A DNA stretch of 64,000 nt from NCBI RefSeq assembly GCF_056712565.1, contig NZ_CM160072.1; one strand, given 5' to 3'. The notes under the pieces were generated by a model, which saw only the letters and a list, made by a program, of their open reading frames with translations, was not told where the DNA came from and did not search any database. Numbering within the stretch: the stretch's first letter is position 1; every line of letters begins with the position of its first letter. Shown here piece after piece: positions 54,893 to 59,192 of the stretch. Made by a program: the position numbers and the translations under genes.

Positions 54893-55404
54893 TAAGCCTG
54901 GAGATTATCTACACCTGGATGGACATCATTGTACTATGCCCCGTACATGCCCCATCACATCCTCAACATCAAAGTATTAGAGCCTTGCAAACCATTATGC
55001 GTCTCAGTTTGTCTCATCTATCTTACGCAAAAAAAATAGAACTAATATCAAGCGGCGCTATATTGCGTATTAAATAAAACCACCTCAATTACATTAATAA
55101 ATCTAAACAAATATCATGCAAATAATTTCCATGGTTATTTTTAGGCTATTTAAATTAAAAAAATAAATTATGAGTCAAACATAAATAACAATCTTTAATA
55201 TAATTTGACTACCAAATTTATATTCGTTCACAAAATAGTCATGCATTGTGTGCAATAGAAACAGTTCAGATAAAAATAGGGAACTACTTCACAATTTAAA
55301 TGAGAAACTAAAACTTACATCTTGAAATAATCTCATTGATTAGATGAATATTTGTAGTGCAGTGACATCATTTTTAAATAATAGTTCAAATAAAAGGGCT
55401 CACG

Positions 55405-56487
55405 ATGAAAAAATTAACAGTGGCAATTTCTGCTGTAGCTGCATCAGTACTGATGGCGATGTCTGCTCAGGCAGCAGAGATTTACAATAAAGACAGTAAC
55501 AAGCTGGATCTGTACGGAAAAGTTAATGCTAAGCACTACTTCTCTTCTAACGATGCAGATGATGGCGACACAACTTATGTTCGTCTGGGCTTCAAAGGCG
55601 AAACTCAAATCAACGATCAACTGACTGGTTTCGGTCAGTGGGAATATGAATTCAAAGGCAACCGTGCTGAATCTCAAGGTTCTTCCAAAGATAAAACCCG
55701 TCTTGCCTTCGCTGGCCTGAAATTCGGTGACTACGGCTCCATCGATTATGGCCGTAACTACGGTGTAGCATACGATATCGGTGCATGGACCGACGTTCTG
55801 CCAGAATTCGGTGGCGATACCTGGACCCAAACAGATGTGTTCATGACTGGTCGCACCACAGGTGTTGCAACCTATCGTAACAACGACTTCTTTGGTCTGG
55901 TTGATGGTCTGAACTTTGCTGCTCAGTATCAGGGTAAAAATGACCGCACTGACGTAACTGAAGCTAACGGTGATGGTTTCGGTTTCTCCACTACTTATGA
56001 GTATGAAGGATTCGGTGTAGGTGCAACCTATGCTAAATCTGACCGCACTAATGATCAGGTTATCTACGGTAACAACAGCCTGAATGCATCTGGTCAAAAT
56101 GCTGAAGTATGGGCAGCTGGTCTGAAATATGATGCGAACAACATCTATCTGGCTACCACCTATTCTGAAACCCAGAACATGACTGTTTTTGGTAATAACC
56201 ATATTGCCAACAAAGCACAAAACTTCGAAGTAGTTGCACAATATCAGTTCGACTTCGGTCTGCGTCCGTCCGTTGCTTACCTGCAATCTAAAGGAAAAGA
56301 CTTGGGTGCGTGGGGTGATCAGGACCTGGTTGAATATATTGATGTAGGTGCAACCTATTACTTCAACAAAAATATGTCCACTTTTGTTGATTACAAAATC
56401 AACCTGATTGATAAGAGCGATTTCACGAAAGCATCTGGCGTTGCTACCGATGATATCGTTGCTGTAGGATTGGTTTACCAGTTCTAA
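55405..56487 (+). CDS. nmpC: General outer-membrane porin, NmpC/OmpD-type
   Basis: 360 aa; signal peptide ...[13 protein letters not shown]; porin motifs and C-terminal ...VGLVYQF. Confidence 0.8.
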
Positions 56488-56503
56488 TCTGATTACTCAA
56501 AGA

Positions 56504-56536
56504 TATGTTGTGGGAGGCTTTGCCTCCCCAACATAT
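56504..56536. other. Long near-perfect inverted repeat just downstream of the porin stop
   Basis: atatgttgtgggaggc-ttt-gcctccccaacatat, 15-16 bp arms. Confidence 0.5.
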
Positions 56537-56624
56537 AAGTGGCCCCCTCAAGCCACTTTCCTTAGAAGCACTATCTTGCTTCTGACTATATAAACCTTCT
56601 GTTATATATTACCCTTTATTTTCT

Positions 56625-56648
56625 GGGGCGTTTCAACGCCCCATTTTT
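56625..56648 (+). terminator. Rho-independent terminator downstream of the porin gene
   Basis: ggggcgtt-tcaa-cgcccc followed by ATTTTT. Confidence 0.6.
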
Positions 56649-56988
56649 AATAATACTCAGTGAACAATTAACGTATCAATTAGATTTAATAACAACGATA
56701 TCCGTACCTAACCGGATATCTAATGTCATAAGCATCCCTTTAATTATCCCCTCAACCTCTTGTAACTTTCCCACTCTTGAACTCCACATAGTCCAAACGC
56801 CGGATGCAAAAAAATCACACGTGCATTTCTGAAATTGTGATGAAGGAAGATAGTATCAATTATATGTGCTTATAAACGACCCCGATTAGCGCAGAAGTCA
56901 CCGGATTGTTCAGGCTCCAATAGGTTGAGTATGCCGTATTTATTTTCCAAAATAAAAATCGATGCTGTTGCTCCTTCATAAAATACTT

Positions 56989-57786
56989 TTACTCTCTGGA
57001 CGCTTTTCTTAGCTCTCTTGGTGTTATCTTAAAACGATTATGGAACCTTTCAGTAAAACGAGAAGGACACTTGTAACCATTTTCCCTGGCAATCTCGCTG
57101 ATGGGTTTTACTGTCGTTTGTATAGCAGACAACGCATTATTTAACCTCACGTCGTCCAATATACTTTGAAAACTTATTCCCTCGCTTGCCAGACGGCGAT
57201 GCAATGTGGAAACAGAAATGTAGAGATATCTCGCTACCTTGTTTGCTGTCCATTTTGTTCCAGGTTCGGATAGCATTAGGTTATAACAACGACTTATTAA
57301 TGATTGTTTACTATCTGATAAAAGTAAACAATTAACATGATGTGCTCCTAATGAAAGTAGAACGCCCATTGCTAAGTGTTCCTGAATTTGCGTTGAGAAG
57401 CCTCGGAAAATAGATGTTTTTAGTTGCTCCCAACAATATATTAACTCGGGGTTCTGAGGTAAGCAGAAACCTGTCGTGTTACGAATTTGATCAGTTATCG
57501 CATAAAATTTTTGAAACTTTTCAATTAGATCAATGGGATAATAAAGCATTTCTGCAAGATAAAGACCTGCTTCTGGATAATTCGCAATATAAAATTCATA
57601 TCCACAGGGAAATAATATTATCTGATTATTATCAACAGTTAGACTATGCGTCTCCCAATTGATAACTTTTTTTCCCTGACGGATACGACATAAAGCTGGC
57701 ATAAGAGGCTTAACCCTGTGAATCTCATGATGTTTATGCATCCGTATTTCTTCAATCTTTAGGTTAGACTTATCTTTTGCCAGCAT
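56989..57786 (-). CDS. ybcM: AraC/XylS-family transcriptional regulator (DLP12 YbcM-like)
   Basis: 265 aa with C-terminal AraC-type HTH (...[40 protein letters not shown]...). Confidence 0.7.
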
Positions 57787-57795
57787 ACTCTTACC

Positions 57796-58347
57796 CTACT
57801 TTATCTCATAAACTGGTGTTATCTCAGCGGTTGCAATTTTATTGGCATTAAGCATATAACCAACTAACGCTCCGCTGGAATTAGAATCCACAGGAATCTT
57901 ATCAGTTTTTAGAGCCCATACTTTAAACTGGTAATGATGGGGTTTATCTCCTTTGGGAGGACATGCTCCACCAAATCCTGCATAACCAAAATCATTTCGG
58001 CCTTGAACAGCACCAGTCGGAAGTTTTGTACCATCACGTCTTCCTGCATCAGTGGGCAAATATGTTACAGTTGCTGGAATATTAGCAACAGTCCAGTGCC
58101 ACCATCCACTGCCTGTAGGAGCATCTGGATCATACACAGTTACGGCAAAGCTTTTGGTGCCTTCAGGAGCACCAGACCAGGTTAATGAGGGCGATGTATT
58201 ACCCCCTTCACACCCAAATCCAGAAAATACATGAGACGTTGTAAGTTGCTCTCCTGTTTTTATTTCATTACTAGTGACCTGAAATGCTGCGGCCTGCGCA
58301 GAAAATGTTATGAATGCCAATACACTTGAAACGATAAGTTTTTTCAT
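57796..58347 (-). CDS. ybcL: Periplasmic PEBP/YbhB-YbcL-family protein (DLP12 YbcL-like)
   Basis: 183 aa with signal peptide; PEBP-family motifs (YDPDAP...HW...). Confidence 0.7.
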   Translation of the reverse strand: MKKLIVSSVLAFITFSAQAAAFQVTSNEIKTGEQLTTSHVFSGFGCEGGNTSPSLTWSGAPEGTKSFAVTVYDPDAPTGSGWWHWTVANIPATVTYLPTDAGRRDGTKLPTGAVQGRNDFGYAGFGGACPPKGDKPHHYQFKVWALKTDKIPVDSNSSGALVGYMLNANKIATAEITPVYEIK

Positions 58348-58515
58348 AAAAACCTCATTGTTGTGACCTATCGTTATTTTATTTGATGTGCCTTGATCTC
58401 ATTATGCATAAAGGCGCAATGATCGCGCAAATGCAATCATAATTATAAAGGTGCCCCGAACATTAGCCATAATATGCACAAATCAGATTCCTGTTATCTC
58501 AAGGATAATTATTTT

Positions 58516-58850
58516 TTAATGCGGTGCACTTCGTGACAACAAGTTAATGACTAACACACCGGCACAAATCAACATCATGCCTATGATAGCTGGCAGGTCC
58601 AGTCGTTGACCAAAAAATCCCCAGGAAAGCAAACTAATCAGAACGATACCGACTCCTGACCAGATAGCATAAGCAATCCCTGTAGGTATATAAGCCAGCG
58701 TCTGAGCTAATAACCAGAATGAGGCACAATAGCAAATAATTGTGCCAACAGAGGGCCATAACCGTGTAAACCCCTCTGAAAACTTCATTAAGGTTGTACC
58801 AATGACCTCTGCAAGTATTGCGCCACCAAGATAAATATAAGGGTTCATAG
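58516..58850 (-). CDS. emrE: Small multidrug resistance efflux transporter EmrE
   Basis: ORF 58516..59028; start set at MNPYIYLGGAILAEVIGTTLMKFSEGF (110 aa, four TM helices, conserved Glu14). Confidence 0.85.
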
Positions 58851-59192
58851 CATATTCTTTCCTGTTCATACTGGAGAGAATTGTACTACAGTTTGAACAC
58901 AACTCACCGTTTTCATCCTGGTGTATGTGTATCCAGGGGGCTCTGGCGTGGCAAGAGATAAAGGCAGGAACAATAATGATCAGAAGGAACCCCAGGCTAA
59001 CGAATGAGTTCACTCTTCCTGGGAGCAAAGCGAAGACAAAACATGTTATCGCGTTTACGGATCGTGGATGGCAGAAAACAACCAGGATCAGGTATCCATT
59101 TTAAACCAGAAATTGAGTGAGTTTGCCCCATCCATGCCCCACGCTGTGGGATCGGATATAATTAAACAAGCATAGTCAACAGGTTACACAAC

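Follow-up and report, generated by a model that had tools for sequence, protein, structure and literature searches.

Several lambdoid elements provide a framework for the locus described here. The lc gene of phage PA-2 and nmpC of Escherichia coli K-12 encode OmpC-family general porins, as does the porin gene of the present island, and are situated in the lambdoid phage genome between Q and the lysis genes, reading in the opposite direction. The K-12 prophage DLP12, inserted at argU, harbors the gene order emrE-ylcJ-ybcK-ybcL-ybcM-ybcN-ninE-ybcO-rusA-ylcG-quuD-nmpC. The same moron set is found in the functional lambdoid phages PhiR34_1, PhiR68_2 and PhiR70_1, and PhiR34_1 (reference PV340559, locus L002) is a complete phage genome which transports this set while retaining the replication, nin, Q, lysis and structural genes as well as ybcK. 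On the bacterial side, yedK, the orthologue of HMCES/SRAP and a model for abasic-site crosslinking, is counted as a core gene of E. coli.

The window analyzed here is a stretch of 64,000 nucleotides from contig NZ_CM160072.1 (assembly GCF_056712565.1). It contains a 4.3 kb island at 54893-59192, which according to the open reading frame calls is the exact interval between the stop codons of yedK and fliE (Table 1). In the initial annotation, a porin gene on the plus strand was placed in this interval together with genes for an AraC-family regulator, a PEBP-family protein and EmrE on the opposite strand, and the reading frames confirm this layout, with ybcM, ybcL and emrE all on the minus strand. 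Gene content and orientation also agree with the proposed correspondence to the emrE-ybcL-ybcM...nmpC part of a lambdoid prophage. The assignment of a DLP12-like moron set holds as well, but the interval additionally contains an integrase pseudogene, stubs of ren and Q, and att repeats, which point to a whole decayed prophage and not to a moron set alone. The yedK-fliE interval is thus very probably a cryptic ("grounded") lambdoid prophage that was integrated at the 3' end of fliE and subsequently gutted by deletions. Neither an open reading frame nor DNA homology for excision, replication, lysis or virion functions is left in the island, where only the four cargo genes are intact. Its GC content, compared with that of the flanking core genes, is clearly lower, amounting to 0.40 over 54909-59192 and dropping to 0.26 ahead of the porin gene, while the whole window has 0.50 and yedK, fliE and fliF have 0.52-0.55.

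Table 1. Features of the yedK-fliE interval and its flanks (positions in the 64,000-nucleotide window).
Feature	Position	Strand	Remarks
yedK	54224-54892	+	SRAP / SOS-response-associated peptidase; NF007413, 488 bits; left flank, bacterial side of left att
Left att core copy, CTACACCTGGATGGACATCA	54909-54928	+	19/20 direct repeat of last 20 nt of fliE
Putative P'-arm-type site, ATGCCCCG / ATGCCCCA	54936-54954	+	two tandem (A/T)TGCCCCA octamers 11 bp apart
AT-rich stretch	54955-55066		seen only in island-bearing genomes; no phage match in collection
Porin upstream region	55067-55404	+	homologous to phage holin-porin intergenic region; 26-35% GC
NmpC/Lc/OmpD-type general porin	55405-56487	+	intact, 360 aa, ends ...VYQF; OmpC subfamily profile
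Antiterminator Q stub	56679-56768	-	last 30 codons; 70% to Q residues 98-127, E 2e-9
ybcM	56989-57786	-	AraC-family regulator, 265 aa; 90.9% to DLP12 YbcM
ybcL	57796-58347	-	periplasmic PEBP/RKIP-like protein, 183 aa; 96.7% to K-12 YbcL
4-nt filler	58503-58506		where ybcK (serine recombinase) and ylcJ are absent vs DLP12/PhiR34_1
emrE	58516-58848	-	SMR multidrug/QAC efflux transporter, 110 aa; 108/110 to K-12 EmrE
ren stub	58916-58924	-	last 9 nt; homology to phage early-right region ends here
Integrase pseudogene (intG equivalent)	58941-59175	+	residues ~239-277 and ~392-434 of 434-aa tyrosine integrase
Putative P-arm-type site, TTGCCCCA / ATGCCCCA	59123-59141	+	octamers 11 bp apart, within integrase 3' end
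Right att core, CTACACCTGCATGGACATCA	59193-59212	+	fliE stop codon and last 17 coding nt; phage homology stops here
fliE	59193-59507	-	TIGR00205; right flank, 3' end = attB

Three blocks of the island are collinear with PhiR34_1 at 89-92% identity in the same order and orientation, namely 55067-56772 with L002 4001-5708 (91.8%), 56772-58502 with L002 7481-9211, and 58507-58924 with L002 11295-11710, the last of which reaches into ren (L002 11702-12004). Two stretches of the phage are absent, one from Q to ybcN (L002 5709-7480, 1772 bp) and one spanning ybcK-ylcJ (L002 9212-11294, 2083 bp). At the junction at 56772 the Q stub is fused to the region just upstream of ybcN, in keeping with the earlier statement that the stretch from ybcM to the porin lacks its usual phage genes; that statement had left out ybcK-ylcJ, likewise absent between ybcL and emrE, where neither a target duplication nor clear microhomology was detected at the junction. 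The described likeness to DLP12 is real, since the four moron genes share order and orientation relative to the integrase end with 86-98% identity at the protein and 85-92% at the nucleotide level, but PhiR34_1 is nearer and matches the DNA best, with about 91% identity across 88% of the island. DLP12 differs in its attachment site, argU instead of the fliE 3' end, and in its integrase family, and the island, unlike DLP12, has no nin/Q genes and no ybcK-ylcJ and possesses an intact porin in place of the IS5-truncated K-12 copy. The dS values of 0.19-0.40 against DLP12 indicate a long-separated lineage.

All four cargo proteins align with their DLP12 counterparts, the porin at 86% to the truncated NmpC of K-12, whose C-terminus is missing because of IS5, and the others at the values given in Table 1. 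Measured against the DLP12/PhiR34_1 copies, dN/dS lies between 0.02 and 0.13 (porin, 0.023; ybcM, 0.13; ybcL, 0.09; emrE, 0.02), and the genes have accordingly been kept under purifying selection. The porin and emrE had been regarded as intact, and both exceed the curated cut-offs of their profiles: the porin scores 520.8 bits against NF007841 (cut-off 484; profile positions 6-368 of 368), and EmrE reaches 240.5 bits against NF042984 (cut-off 226) with the essential Glu14 present in MNPYIYLGGAILAEV. The porin, with an intact N-terminal signal peptide and a C-terminal aromatic residue, is 99.2% identical to that of PhiR34_1 and, compared with PA-2 lc and nmpC, is orphaned from Q and the lysis cassette. 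An intrinsic-terminator-like hairpin followed by a T run is located downstream of it at 56624-56643 (+). A longer open reading frame reaching 59028 was rejected as emrE.

Residues ~153-264 of YbcM match the helix-turn-helix part of many AraC-family models (E down to 3e-18), and its scores as a characterized equivalog (HilD, GadX, AraC and others) all fall far under the curated cut-offs, for example 65.5 against 354 bits for HilD. The neutrophil-suppressing residue of YbcL from UPEC was reportedly given as T78 by Lau and colleagues in 2012. YbcL of the window, which scores 401.8 bits against PRK09818 (cut-off 277; positions 1-183 of 183) and carries a recognizable signal peptide, has Thr at precursor position 99, where K-12 has Val; this corresponds to mature position 78 if the signal peptide comprises 21 residues. 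A single residue decides the suppression activity of YbcL (review PMC4810123). The YbcL allele in the window may be of the uropathogenic type.

Att-like direct repeats, for which a search at the junctions had been suggested, were found, the 20-nt end of fliE being present at both edges of the island. The core has only these two matches in the 64-kb window, one per edge, a number reached in 0 of 100 shuffles. The left copy starts at 54909, exactly where the haplotypes part, the yedK-side sequence being common to the K-12-type and near-empty haplotypes up to 54908, and the T at 54929 directly after it agrees with the phage attP and not with fliE. The tandem-octamer motif of the putative arm-type sites likewise occurs exactly twice in 64 kb, at both island edges (0 of 100 shuffles reach two), and the same octamers are present on the P and P' arms of Escherichia phage IdasGreatGrand (PP925829) and Enterobacter phage CobraSix (NC_071003). 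In the attP of these two phages, the octamer-bearing integrase 3' end is followed by 51 nt, the core, ~119 nt and further octamers. The left att of the island departs from this pattern, as its core and octamer pair are only 8 nt apart instead of ~119 nt; this spacing, together with the following 112 nt without a phage match, suggests that the P' arm is truncated or derived from an unsampled phage. Those 112 nt (54955-55066) are found in 1547 genomes with matches confined to island loci, and are presumed to be a leftover of the P' arm or of the late region.

The integrase remnant of ~80 codons ends 17 nt from the fliE stop, and its two fragments are joined across an internal deletion of ~345 bp at a TTATC microhomology (~59046-59050). 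The full-length enzyme comprises Arm-DNA-bind_2 (PF12167, E 1e-25) and Phage_integrase domains. IdasGreatGrand shares the integrase 3' end, the spacer and the 20-nt core with the window, at 97.6% identity over 59046-59212, whereas the fragment at 58941-59050 is merely 74% identical, which reveals the integrase module to be mosaic. CobraSix matches 59046-59212 at 82% and has a diverged core, in which more than 3 of the 20 nucleotides differ. IdasGreatGrand and one IMG/VR contig carry an exact copy of the 20-nt fliE end after the integrase gene.

Live phages and prophages appear to use the same fliE site. Full-length integrases abut fliE in six E. coli genomes, and E. coli UTAK-1 bears a full P22-like prophage of ~38.6 kb there in the same orientation, arranged int-xis...terminase...tailspike with a hybrid att at the distal end. 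The cargo of IdasGreatGrand, CobraSix and the UTAK-1 prophage is different and includes none of the four morons, and the P' arm of the island is much shorter than theirs. Among representatives of 80 other Enterobacteriaceae species, this integrase follows fliE directly in 17, either as a full gene 24-42 nt past the fliE stop (12 representatives) or in fragments (5 more), and the P-arm-type site is kept downstream of fliE wherever the integrase is present. Where the site is occupied in these species, fliE ends in a phage-type last codon with phage-type sequence downstream of it; this is different in unoccupied Citrobacter, where yedF lies 52-83 nt from fliE in at least eight representatives, an arrangement that looks like an unoccupied attB. 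On such sequence comparisons, the fliE 3' end can be regarded as the attB of an arm-binding tyrosine integrase family, a modest addition to knowledge which gives the hotspot a concrete cause; the suspicion of an integration/replacement hotspot raised in the initial annotation was thereby well founded.

The island proved to be strain-variable, as had been supposed: its intact-porin form, scored as at least 80% of 54100-59600, occurs in 454 of 5426 complete E. coli genomes (about 8%), and the emrE-int'-fliE junction in 2619 of them (about 48%). Between the window and O111:NM, the island is 97.4-98.7% identical with the same deletion junctions, and the flanking core genes are 97.5-99% identical. 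The occurrence in about half of the genomes and the core-like divergence argue for an old polymorphism rather than a recent acquisition; combined with the dN/dS values, this divergence indicates that the stripped state is both old and maintained. Accessory islands of this sort are common and unremarkable in E. coli, the present one having clearly defined boundaries. The K-12 interval had been expected to hold different genes, and MG1655 indeed has yedL (GNAT acetyltransferase), an LRR/EspR3-type effector pseudogene (yedN/yedM; DUF5503/LRR) and an integrase stub. This filling occupies the same slot with the same ending, namely integrase stub, P arm and core beside fliE, and its stub, ~87% identical to the phage and lacking an 11-nt stretch, suggests an origin in a distinct or far earlier event. 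The same base (54908/54909) also marks the point of divergence of the K-12-type haplotype, yet no recognizable left core copy was detected there, a feature that is unexplained by a simple integration model.

The age of the island within E. coli, its presence in about 48% of genomes and the purifying selection on its genes would also be expected if the four genes were ancestral in Escherichia at this position, acquired from it by DLP12-type phages and lost from K-12-type strains. This is extremely improbable: the representatives of five other Escherichia species, E. albertii and E. whittamii among them, lack both the island and yedK, with homology to the window stopping at 54146, and yedF lies 52-83 nt from fliE in Citrobacter and other genera, which contradicts a conserved ancestral arrangement. 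Moreover, the GC content is 40% against 50%, and the genes sit between stubs of Q, ren and the integrase in phage order, bounded by att repeats. Scarcely more credible is a transposon- or IS-borne cassette or a phage satellite (PICI-like element) in place of a decayed full prophage, to which the small, cargo-only content and the copies of IS200/IS605 (TnpB) at the yedK edge in many carriers might seem to point. However, no transposase or terminal inverted repeats were found in the window form by the reading frame list and repeat search, and the island has no satellite hallmark genes; the IS605 copies are secondary insertions at 54891 with the porin lost alongside, and every segment, Q and ren stubs included, is collinear with a full-size lambdoid genome.

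A further reading, which does not conflict with a prophage origin, deals with how the island has spread. The stripped form could have been imported, or swapped with the K-12-type filling, by homologous recombination through the yedK and fliE/int' flanks during transduction or conjugation, and the variability would then reflect allele replacement between two old haplotypes instead of repeated integration. The flanks of both haplotypes end at identical bases (54908 and 59046), and all carriers examined have identical deletion junctions. In addition, yedK is unusually diverged between haplotypes (dS 0.145; 94-95.5% nucleotide identity, against 97.5-99% for yedE-yedF, fliF and fliG), as expected for a sequence in linkage with an old polymorphism, whether balanced or recombining. 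We nevertheless consider import rather unlikely, because the divergence of the island from O111:NM tracks that of the core, which vertical descent fits equally well, and because the att core copy, the arm motifs and the integrase stub still demand an initial site-specific integration.

Under the preferred reading of a prophage gutted at fliE, a DLP12/PhiR34_1-like phage equipped with an IdasGreatGrand/CobraSix-type tyrosine integrase, with its N-terminal arm-binding domain, would have entered the last ~20 nt of fliE by site-specific recombination, donating a replacement fliE 3' end and leaving a core copy at the far prophage end. At least four illegitimate deletions may then have stripped every phage function: one that began in the P' arm, took out the structural and lysis genes and stopped at the region upstream of the porin, one from Q to ybcN, one from ren to the middle of the integrase with loss of the whole early region, and one within the integrase. 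The fifth gap, ybcK-ylcJ, would represent either a deletion here or an insertion in the DLP12/PhiR34_1 lineage of an element that never entered this one. Since no less-decayed intermediate of this prophage was found at fliE, decay in situ is something we infer rather than observe. The survivors would be four lysogenic-conversion genes that each form a self-contained unit: the porin may provide an alternative route of general diffusion as a channel of the Lc/NmpC type, with YbcM acting as an AraC-type regulator, YbcL as a periplasmic PEBP protein and EmrE as a proton-coupled exporter of cationic drugs. As excision is no longer possible, they are now inherited as chromosomal genes.

More broadly, it is conceivable, and we propose it only tentatively, that one lineage of arm-binding tyrosine integrases uses the fliE 3' end as its attB throughout the Enterobacteriaceae, that repeated lysogeny and decay filled the yedF-fliE gap with layers of domesticated passengers, yedK itself being an older one, and that the emrE-ybcL-ybcM-porin and yedL-EspR3' fillings are long-lived haplotypes maintained in the species. 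The defined phage attachment site explains why the yedK-fliE slot varies between strains, and the exact boundaries are useful for comparative work and engineering, although the overall practical value is modest. About half of the sequenced E. coli genomes have emrE, ybcL and ybcM beside the genes of flagellar region III and not in DLP12, which is relevant when the context of resistance or virulence genes is inferred from K-12. The YbcL allele and the intact extra porin could influence interactions with the host, susceptibility to phages and permeability to antibiotics. The island thus offers a clean example of a prophage reduced to its passenger genes alone, on which purifying selection has acted throughout the divergence of the major phylogroups.

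The island located between yedK and fliE was found to span exactly from the stop codon of yedK to that of fliE (54893-59192) and to harbor four intact genes, just as delimited in the initial annotation. Its features are collected in the table below. A longer open reading frame extending to 59028 does not represent emrE. Alignment to the functional lambdoid phage PhiR34_1 (L002) revealed three collinear blocks, while DLP12, the cryptic prophage of K-12 that carries the same cargo genes, aligned slightly less well.

Features of the yedK-fliE interval and its edges in window coordinates
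Feature	Position	Strand	Remark
yedK	54224-54892	+	left flank
left core copy	54909-54928		19/20 match to right core
left octamer pair	54936-54954
block 1	55067-56772		L002 4001-5708; 91.8% identity
porin, 360 aa	55405-56487	+	intact; NCBIfam: OmpC subfamily, above curated cut-off
Q stub	56679-56768		final 30 codons
block 2	56772-58502		L002 7481-9211; 89.4% identity
ybcM	56989-57786	-	intact; NCBIfam: generic AraC-type helix-turn-helix domain only
ybcL	57796-58347	-	intact; NCBIfam PRK09818, above curated cut-off
block 3	58507-58924		L002 11295-11710; 91.9% identity
emrE	58516-58848	-	intact; NCBIfam NF042984, above curated cut-off
ren stub	58916-58924		9 bases
int', first piece	58941-59050		residues ~239-277 of IdasGreatGrand integrase; 74% nt identity
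int', second piece	59046-59212		97.6% to IdasGreatGrand; last 43 integrase codons, 17-nt spacer after stop, attP core
right octamer pair	59123-59141
ACAAGCATAGT	59161-59171		11 nt; final integrase codons and part of stop codon
right core	59193-59212		fliE stop codon and final 17 coding bases
fliE	59193-59507	-	right flank

The three-block alignment implies that two phage stretches are missing from the island. The first of them, comprising 1772 bp with most of Q, ylcG, rusA, ybcO, ninE and ybcN, corresponds to the earlier proposal that the phage genes normally lying between ybcM and the porin gene had been lost. The second, which had gone unmentioned, amounts to 2083 bp between ybcL and emrE and contains the serine recombinase gene ybcK and ylcJ, which were either deleted here or never present. 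Stubs of Q and ren are retained. At the protein level, the identity to the K-12 DLP12 counterparts reaches 86% for the porin, 90.9% for YbcM, 96.7% for YbcL and 108/110 residues for EmrE. With its PhiR34_1 counterpart the porin shares 99.2% identity, and it retains the C-terminus that K-12 NmpC lacks.

The homology to the moron region stops at 58924, to the right of which lies a tyrosine-integrase pseudogene (int') related to the integrase of Escherichia phage IdasGreatGrand, whose two pieces are joined over a deletion of ~345 bp at a TTATC microhomology. Phage homology ends at the right core, CTACACCTGCATGGACATCA. The left core copy begins at the first base that sets the island apart from the haplotypes of the K-12 type and the near-empty type, and the 21st base there is as in the phage, unlike fliE. 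Each core has beside it two (A/T)TGCCCCA octamers spaced 11 bp apart. Within the 64-kb window, core and octamer pair were each encountered only twice, and none of 100 shuffles yielded two matches. In the attP of IdasGreatGrand and of Enterobacter phage CobraSix, the octamer pair flanks the core on both sides, the CobraSix core differing from that of E. coli at more than three of 20 positions. When IMG/VR was scanned for exact copies of the core, one contig was retrieved, with the same integrase/attP. The integrase possesses an Arm-DNA-bind_2 domain at its N-terminus, and the combination of octamers and arm-binding domain is the layout expected of arm-type sites, presumably bound by a lambda-Int-like recombinase. 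The left arm is atypical, with 8 nt from core to octamers versus ~119 nt in the phages, and is followed by 112 nt without assigned origin. A sensitive-mode search of the phage collection with the leftmost 183 nt (54893-55075) gave no match, and the P' arm is not tied to any sampled phage.

In composition, the island displays a GC content of 0.40 over 54909-59192, with a low of 0.26 in the stretch preceding the porin gene, in contrast with 0.50 for the whole window and 0.52-0.55 for yedK, fliE and fliF. A terminator 3' of the porin is the sole noteworthy regulatory-signal match. The promoter-consensus scan was uninformative because it returned fewer sites than in shuffled sequence, and Rfam gave no match within 54000-59700 at E <= 0.1.

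The distribution of the island was determined over 5426 complete E. coli genomes, among which at least 80% of 54100-59600 (the porin form) was present in 454, the left att piece (54893-55075) in 1547 and the emrE-int'-fliE junction (58800-59215) in 2619. E. coli ZJ3920 is 100% identical to the window across 54100-59600, and the type strain ATCC 11775 shares its arrangement. Common derivatives carry an IS200/IS605 (TnpB) element at 54891 together with a porin deletion at 55446-56677, while in others yedK is cut off at 54660. In over a thousand genomes the IS200/IS605 element, whose TnpB belongs to the RNA-guided endonuclease family, sits exactly at the yedK stop (for instance L004 3336-4977, L009 5295-6936 and L015 2590-4231), and the genomes bearing it keep the first 41 nt of the deleted porin.

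In the other half of E. coli, the slot either has the K-12-type filling, made up of yedL, a pseudogene of LRR/EspR3 kind and a stub of an integrase gene, or is near-empty at 392 bp. The haplotypes diverge at one base, 54908/54909 of the window, 16 nt past the yedK stop (L007 3309/3310, L006 3307/3308). At the left junction of the K-12 type, neither visual inspection nor a scan tolerating up to three mismatches turned up a core-like sequence. The integrase stub of the K-12 type shares only ~87% identity with the phage. The 11 nt of ACAAGCATAGT, present in the window, IdasGreatGrand and the IMG/VR contig, are missing from this stub and likewise from the near-empty haplotype, and the stub of the K-12 type is thus attributed to a separate or much older event. 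Between haplotypes, yedK shows 94-95.5% nucleotide identity (against L007 and L097) with a dS of 0.145, compared with 97.5-99% for the neighbouring core genes, and the few differences in fliE are mostly nonsynonymous (five versus two synonymous).

As for the origin of the island, three other explanations were considered and rejected, namely an ancestral arrangement, an IS-borne cassette and a phage satellite. In representatives of five other Escherichia species, E. albertii and E. whittamii among them, the slot is occupied differently again, with neither the island nor yedK. In the preferred scenario, a lambdoid prophage would have integrated at the 3' end of fliE and been reduced by successive illegitimate deletions to four lysogenic-conversion genes, leaving a 'grounded' prophage that would no longer be mobile. 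No intermediate stage in the decay of this prophage was found at the fliE site. The deletion junctions of the window are common to all derivatives, and the identity between the window and O111:NM is 97.4-98.7% for the island genes, the same as the 97.5-99% of yedE-yedF, fliF and fliG, which implies that the prophage was stripped before the lineages split and was then inherited with the chromosome. Against the DLP12/PhiR34_1 copies, dS amounts to 0.16-0.40 and dN/dS to 0.02-0.13 for all four genes; the cargo genes are long-separated copies under purifying selection.

Live elements use the same site. E. coli UTAK-1 carries a complete P22-like prophage of ~38.6 kb (int-xis-early-nin-Q-lysis-head genes-tailspike), whose integrase abuts fliE in the orientation of the island and whose distal end is a hybrid att, in which the old integrase stub with its P arm precedes the core and the new P' arm with octamers follows it; beyond this att lie the K-12-type LRR gene and then yedK. 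A full-length integrase of this type adjoins fliE in six complete E. coli genomes. In a cross-species survey by FliE search, taking one genome per species, a full-length integrase was located 24-42 nt past the fliE stop in 12 of 80 Enterobacteriaceae loci, integrase fragments in five more and the P-arm motif alone in a further two. In at least eight Citrobacter representatives and several other genera, yedF directly follows fliE after 52-83 nt, a gap that looks like an unoccupied attB. Occupied genomes typically have GTT as the last codon of fliE and continue into phage-type sequence, whereas unoccupied ones mostly have GTG there, with unrelated sequence after it.

The gene yedK, an SRAP/HMCES orthologue, may itself be an old passenger of the integration site. 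The five other Escherichia representatives have no yedK between fliE and yedF, and their homology to the window (L019, L020, L021, L025, and L032 from 7313) ends at 54146, just past yedF; among the 80 Enterobacteriaceae loci, only one has the gene in that gap. The yedK of Enterobacter cloacae DSM 26481 (L061 11160-11825), 85% identical, is separated from fliE by 4 kb and by fragments of the integrase. As separate observations, a 134-aa conserved protein (MDQVAIFQKMF...) adjoins yedF in other Escherichia (L019 9261-9665, L020 12012-12416, L021 9766-10170, L025 8481-8885), and two such loci also encode a 133-aa putative paralogue of the lysozyme inhibitor PliG/YcgK. In CobraSix (L013 5422-6995), UmuD-like and translesion-polymerase genes lie directly beyond attP, these SOS/DNA-damage passengers holding the position relative to att that yedK (SOS-associated peptidase) holds in E. 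coli.

From family membership and general knowledge, the porin is predicted to act as an extra general-diffusion channel, EmrE as a proton-coupled exporter of cationic drugs, YbcL as a periplasmic PEBP protein and YbcM as an AraC-type regulator. At position 99 of the YbcL precursor, presumably the residue deciding neutrophil suppression, the window protein has Thr and that of K-12 Val. A single residue has been reported to separate the neutrophil-suppressing uropathogenic form of YbcL from the K-12 form (PMC4810123).

Taken as a whole, the observation of a DLP12-like moron set in this slot was confirmed, and its proposed prophage origin is supported, with refinements concerning the second missing stretch, the stubs, the att sites and the age. 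The island belongs to an ordinary class, that of cryptic prophage remnants, its genes are already annotated in RefSeq, and no description of it or of the fliE attB was found in the searchable literature. What is added is modest: defined att sites, recognition of the 3' end of fliE as an attB in wide use, and evidence that a remnant consisting of cargo alone was retained over the long term.
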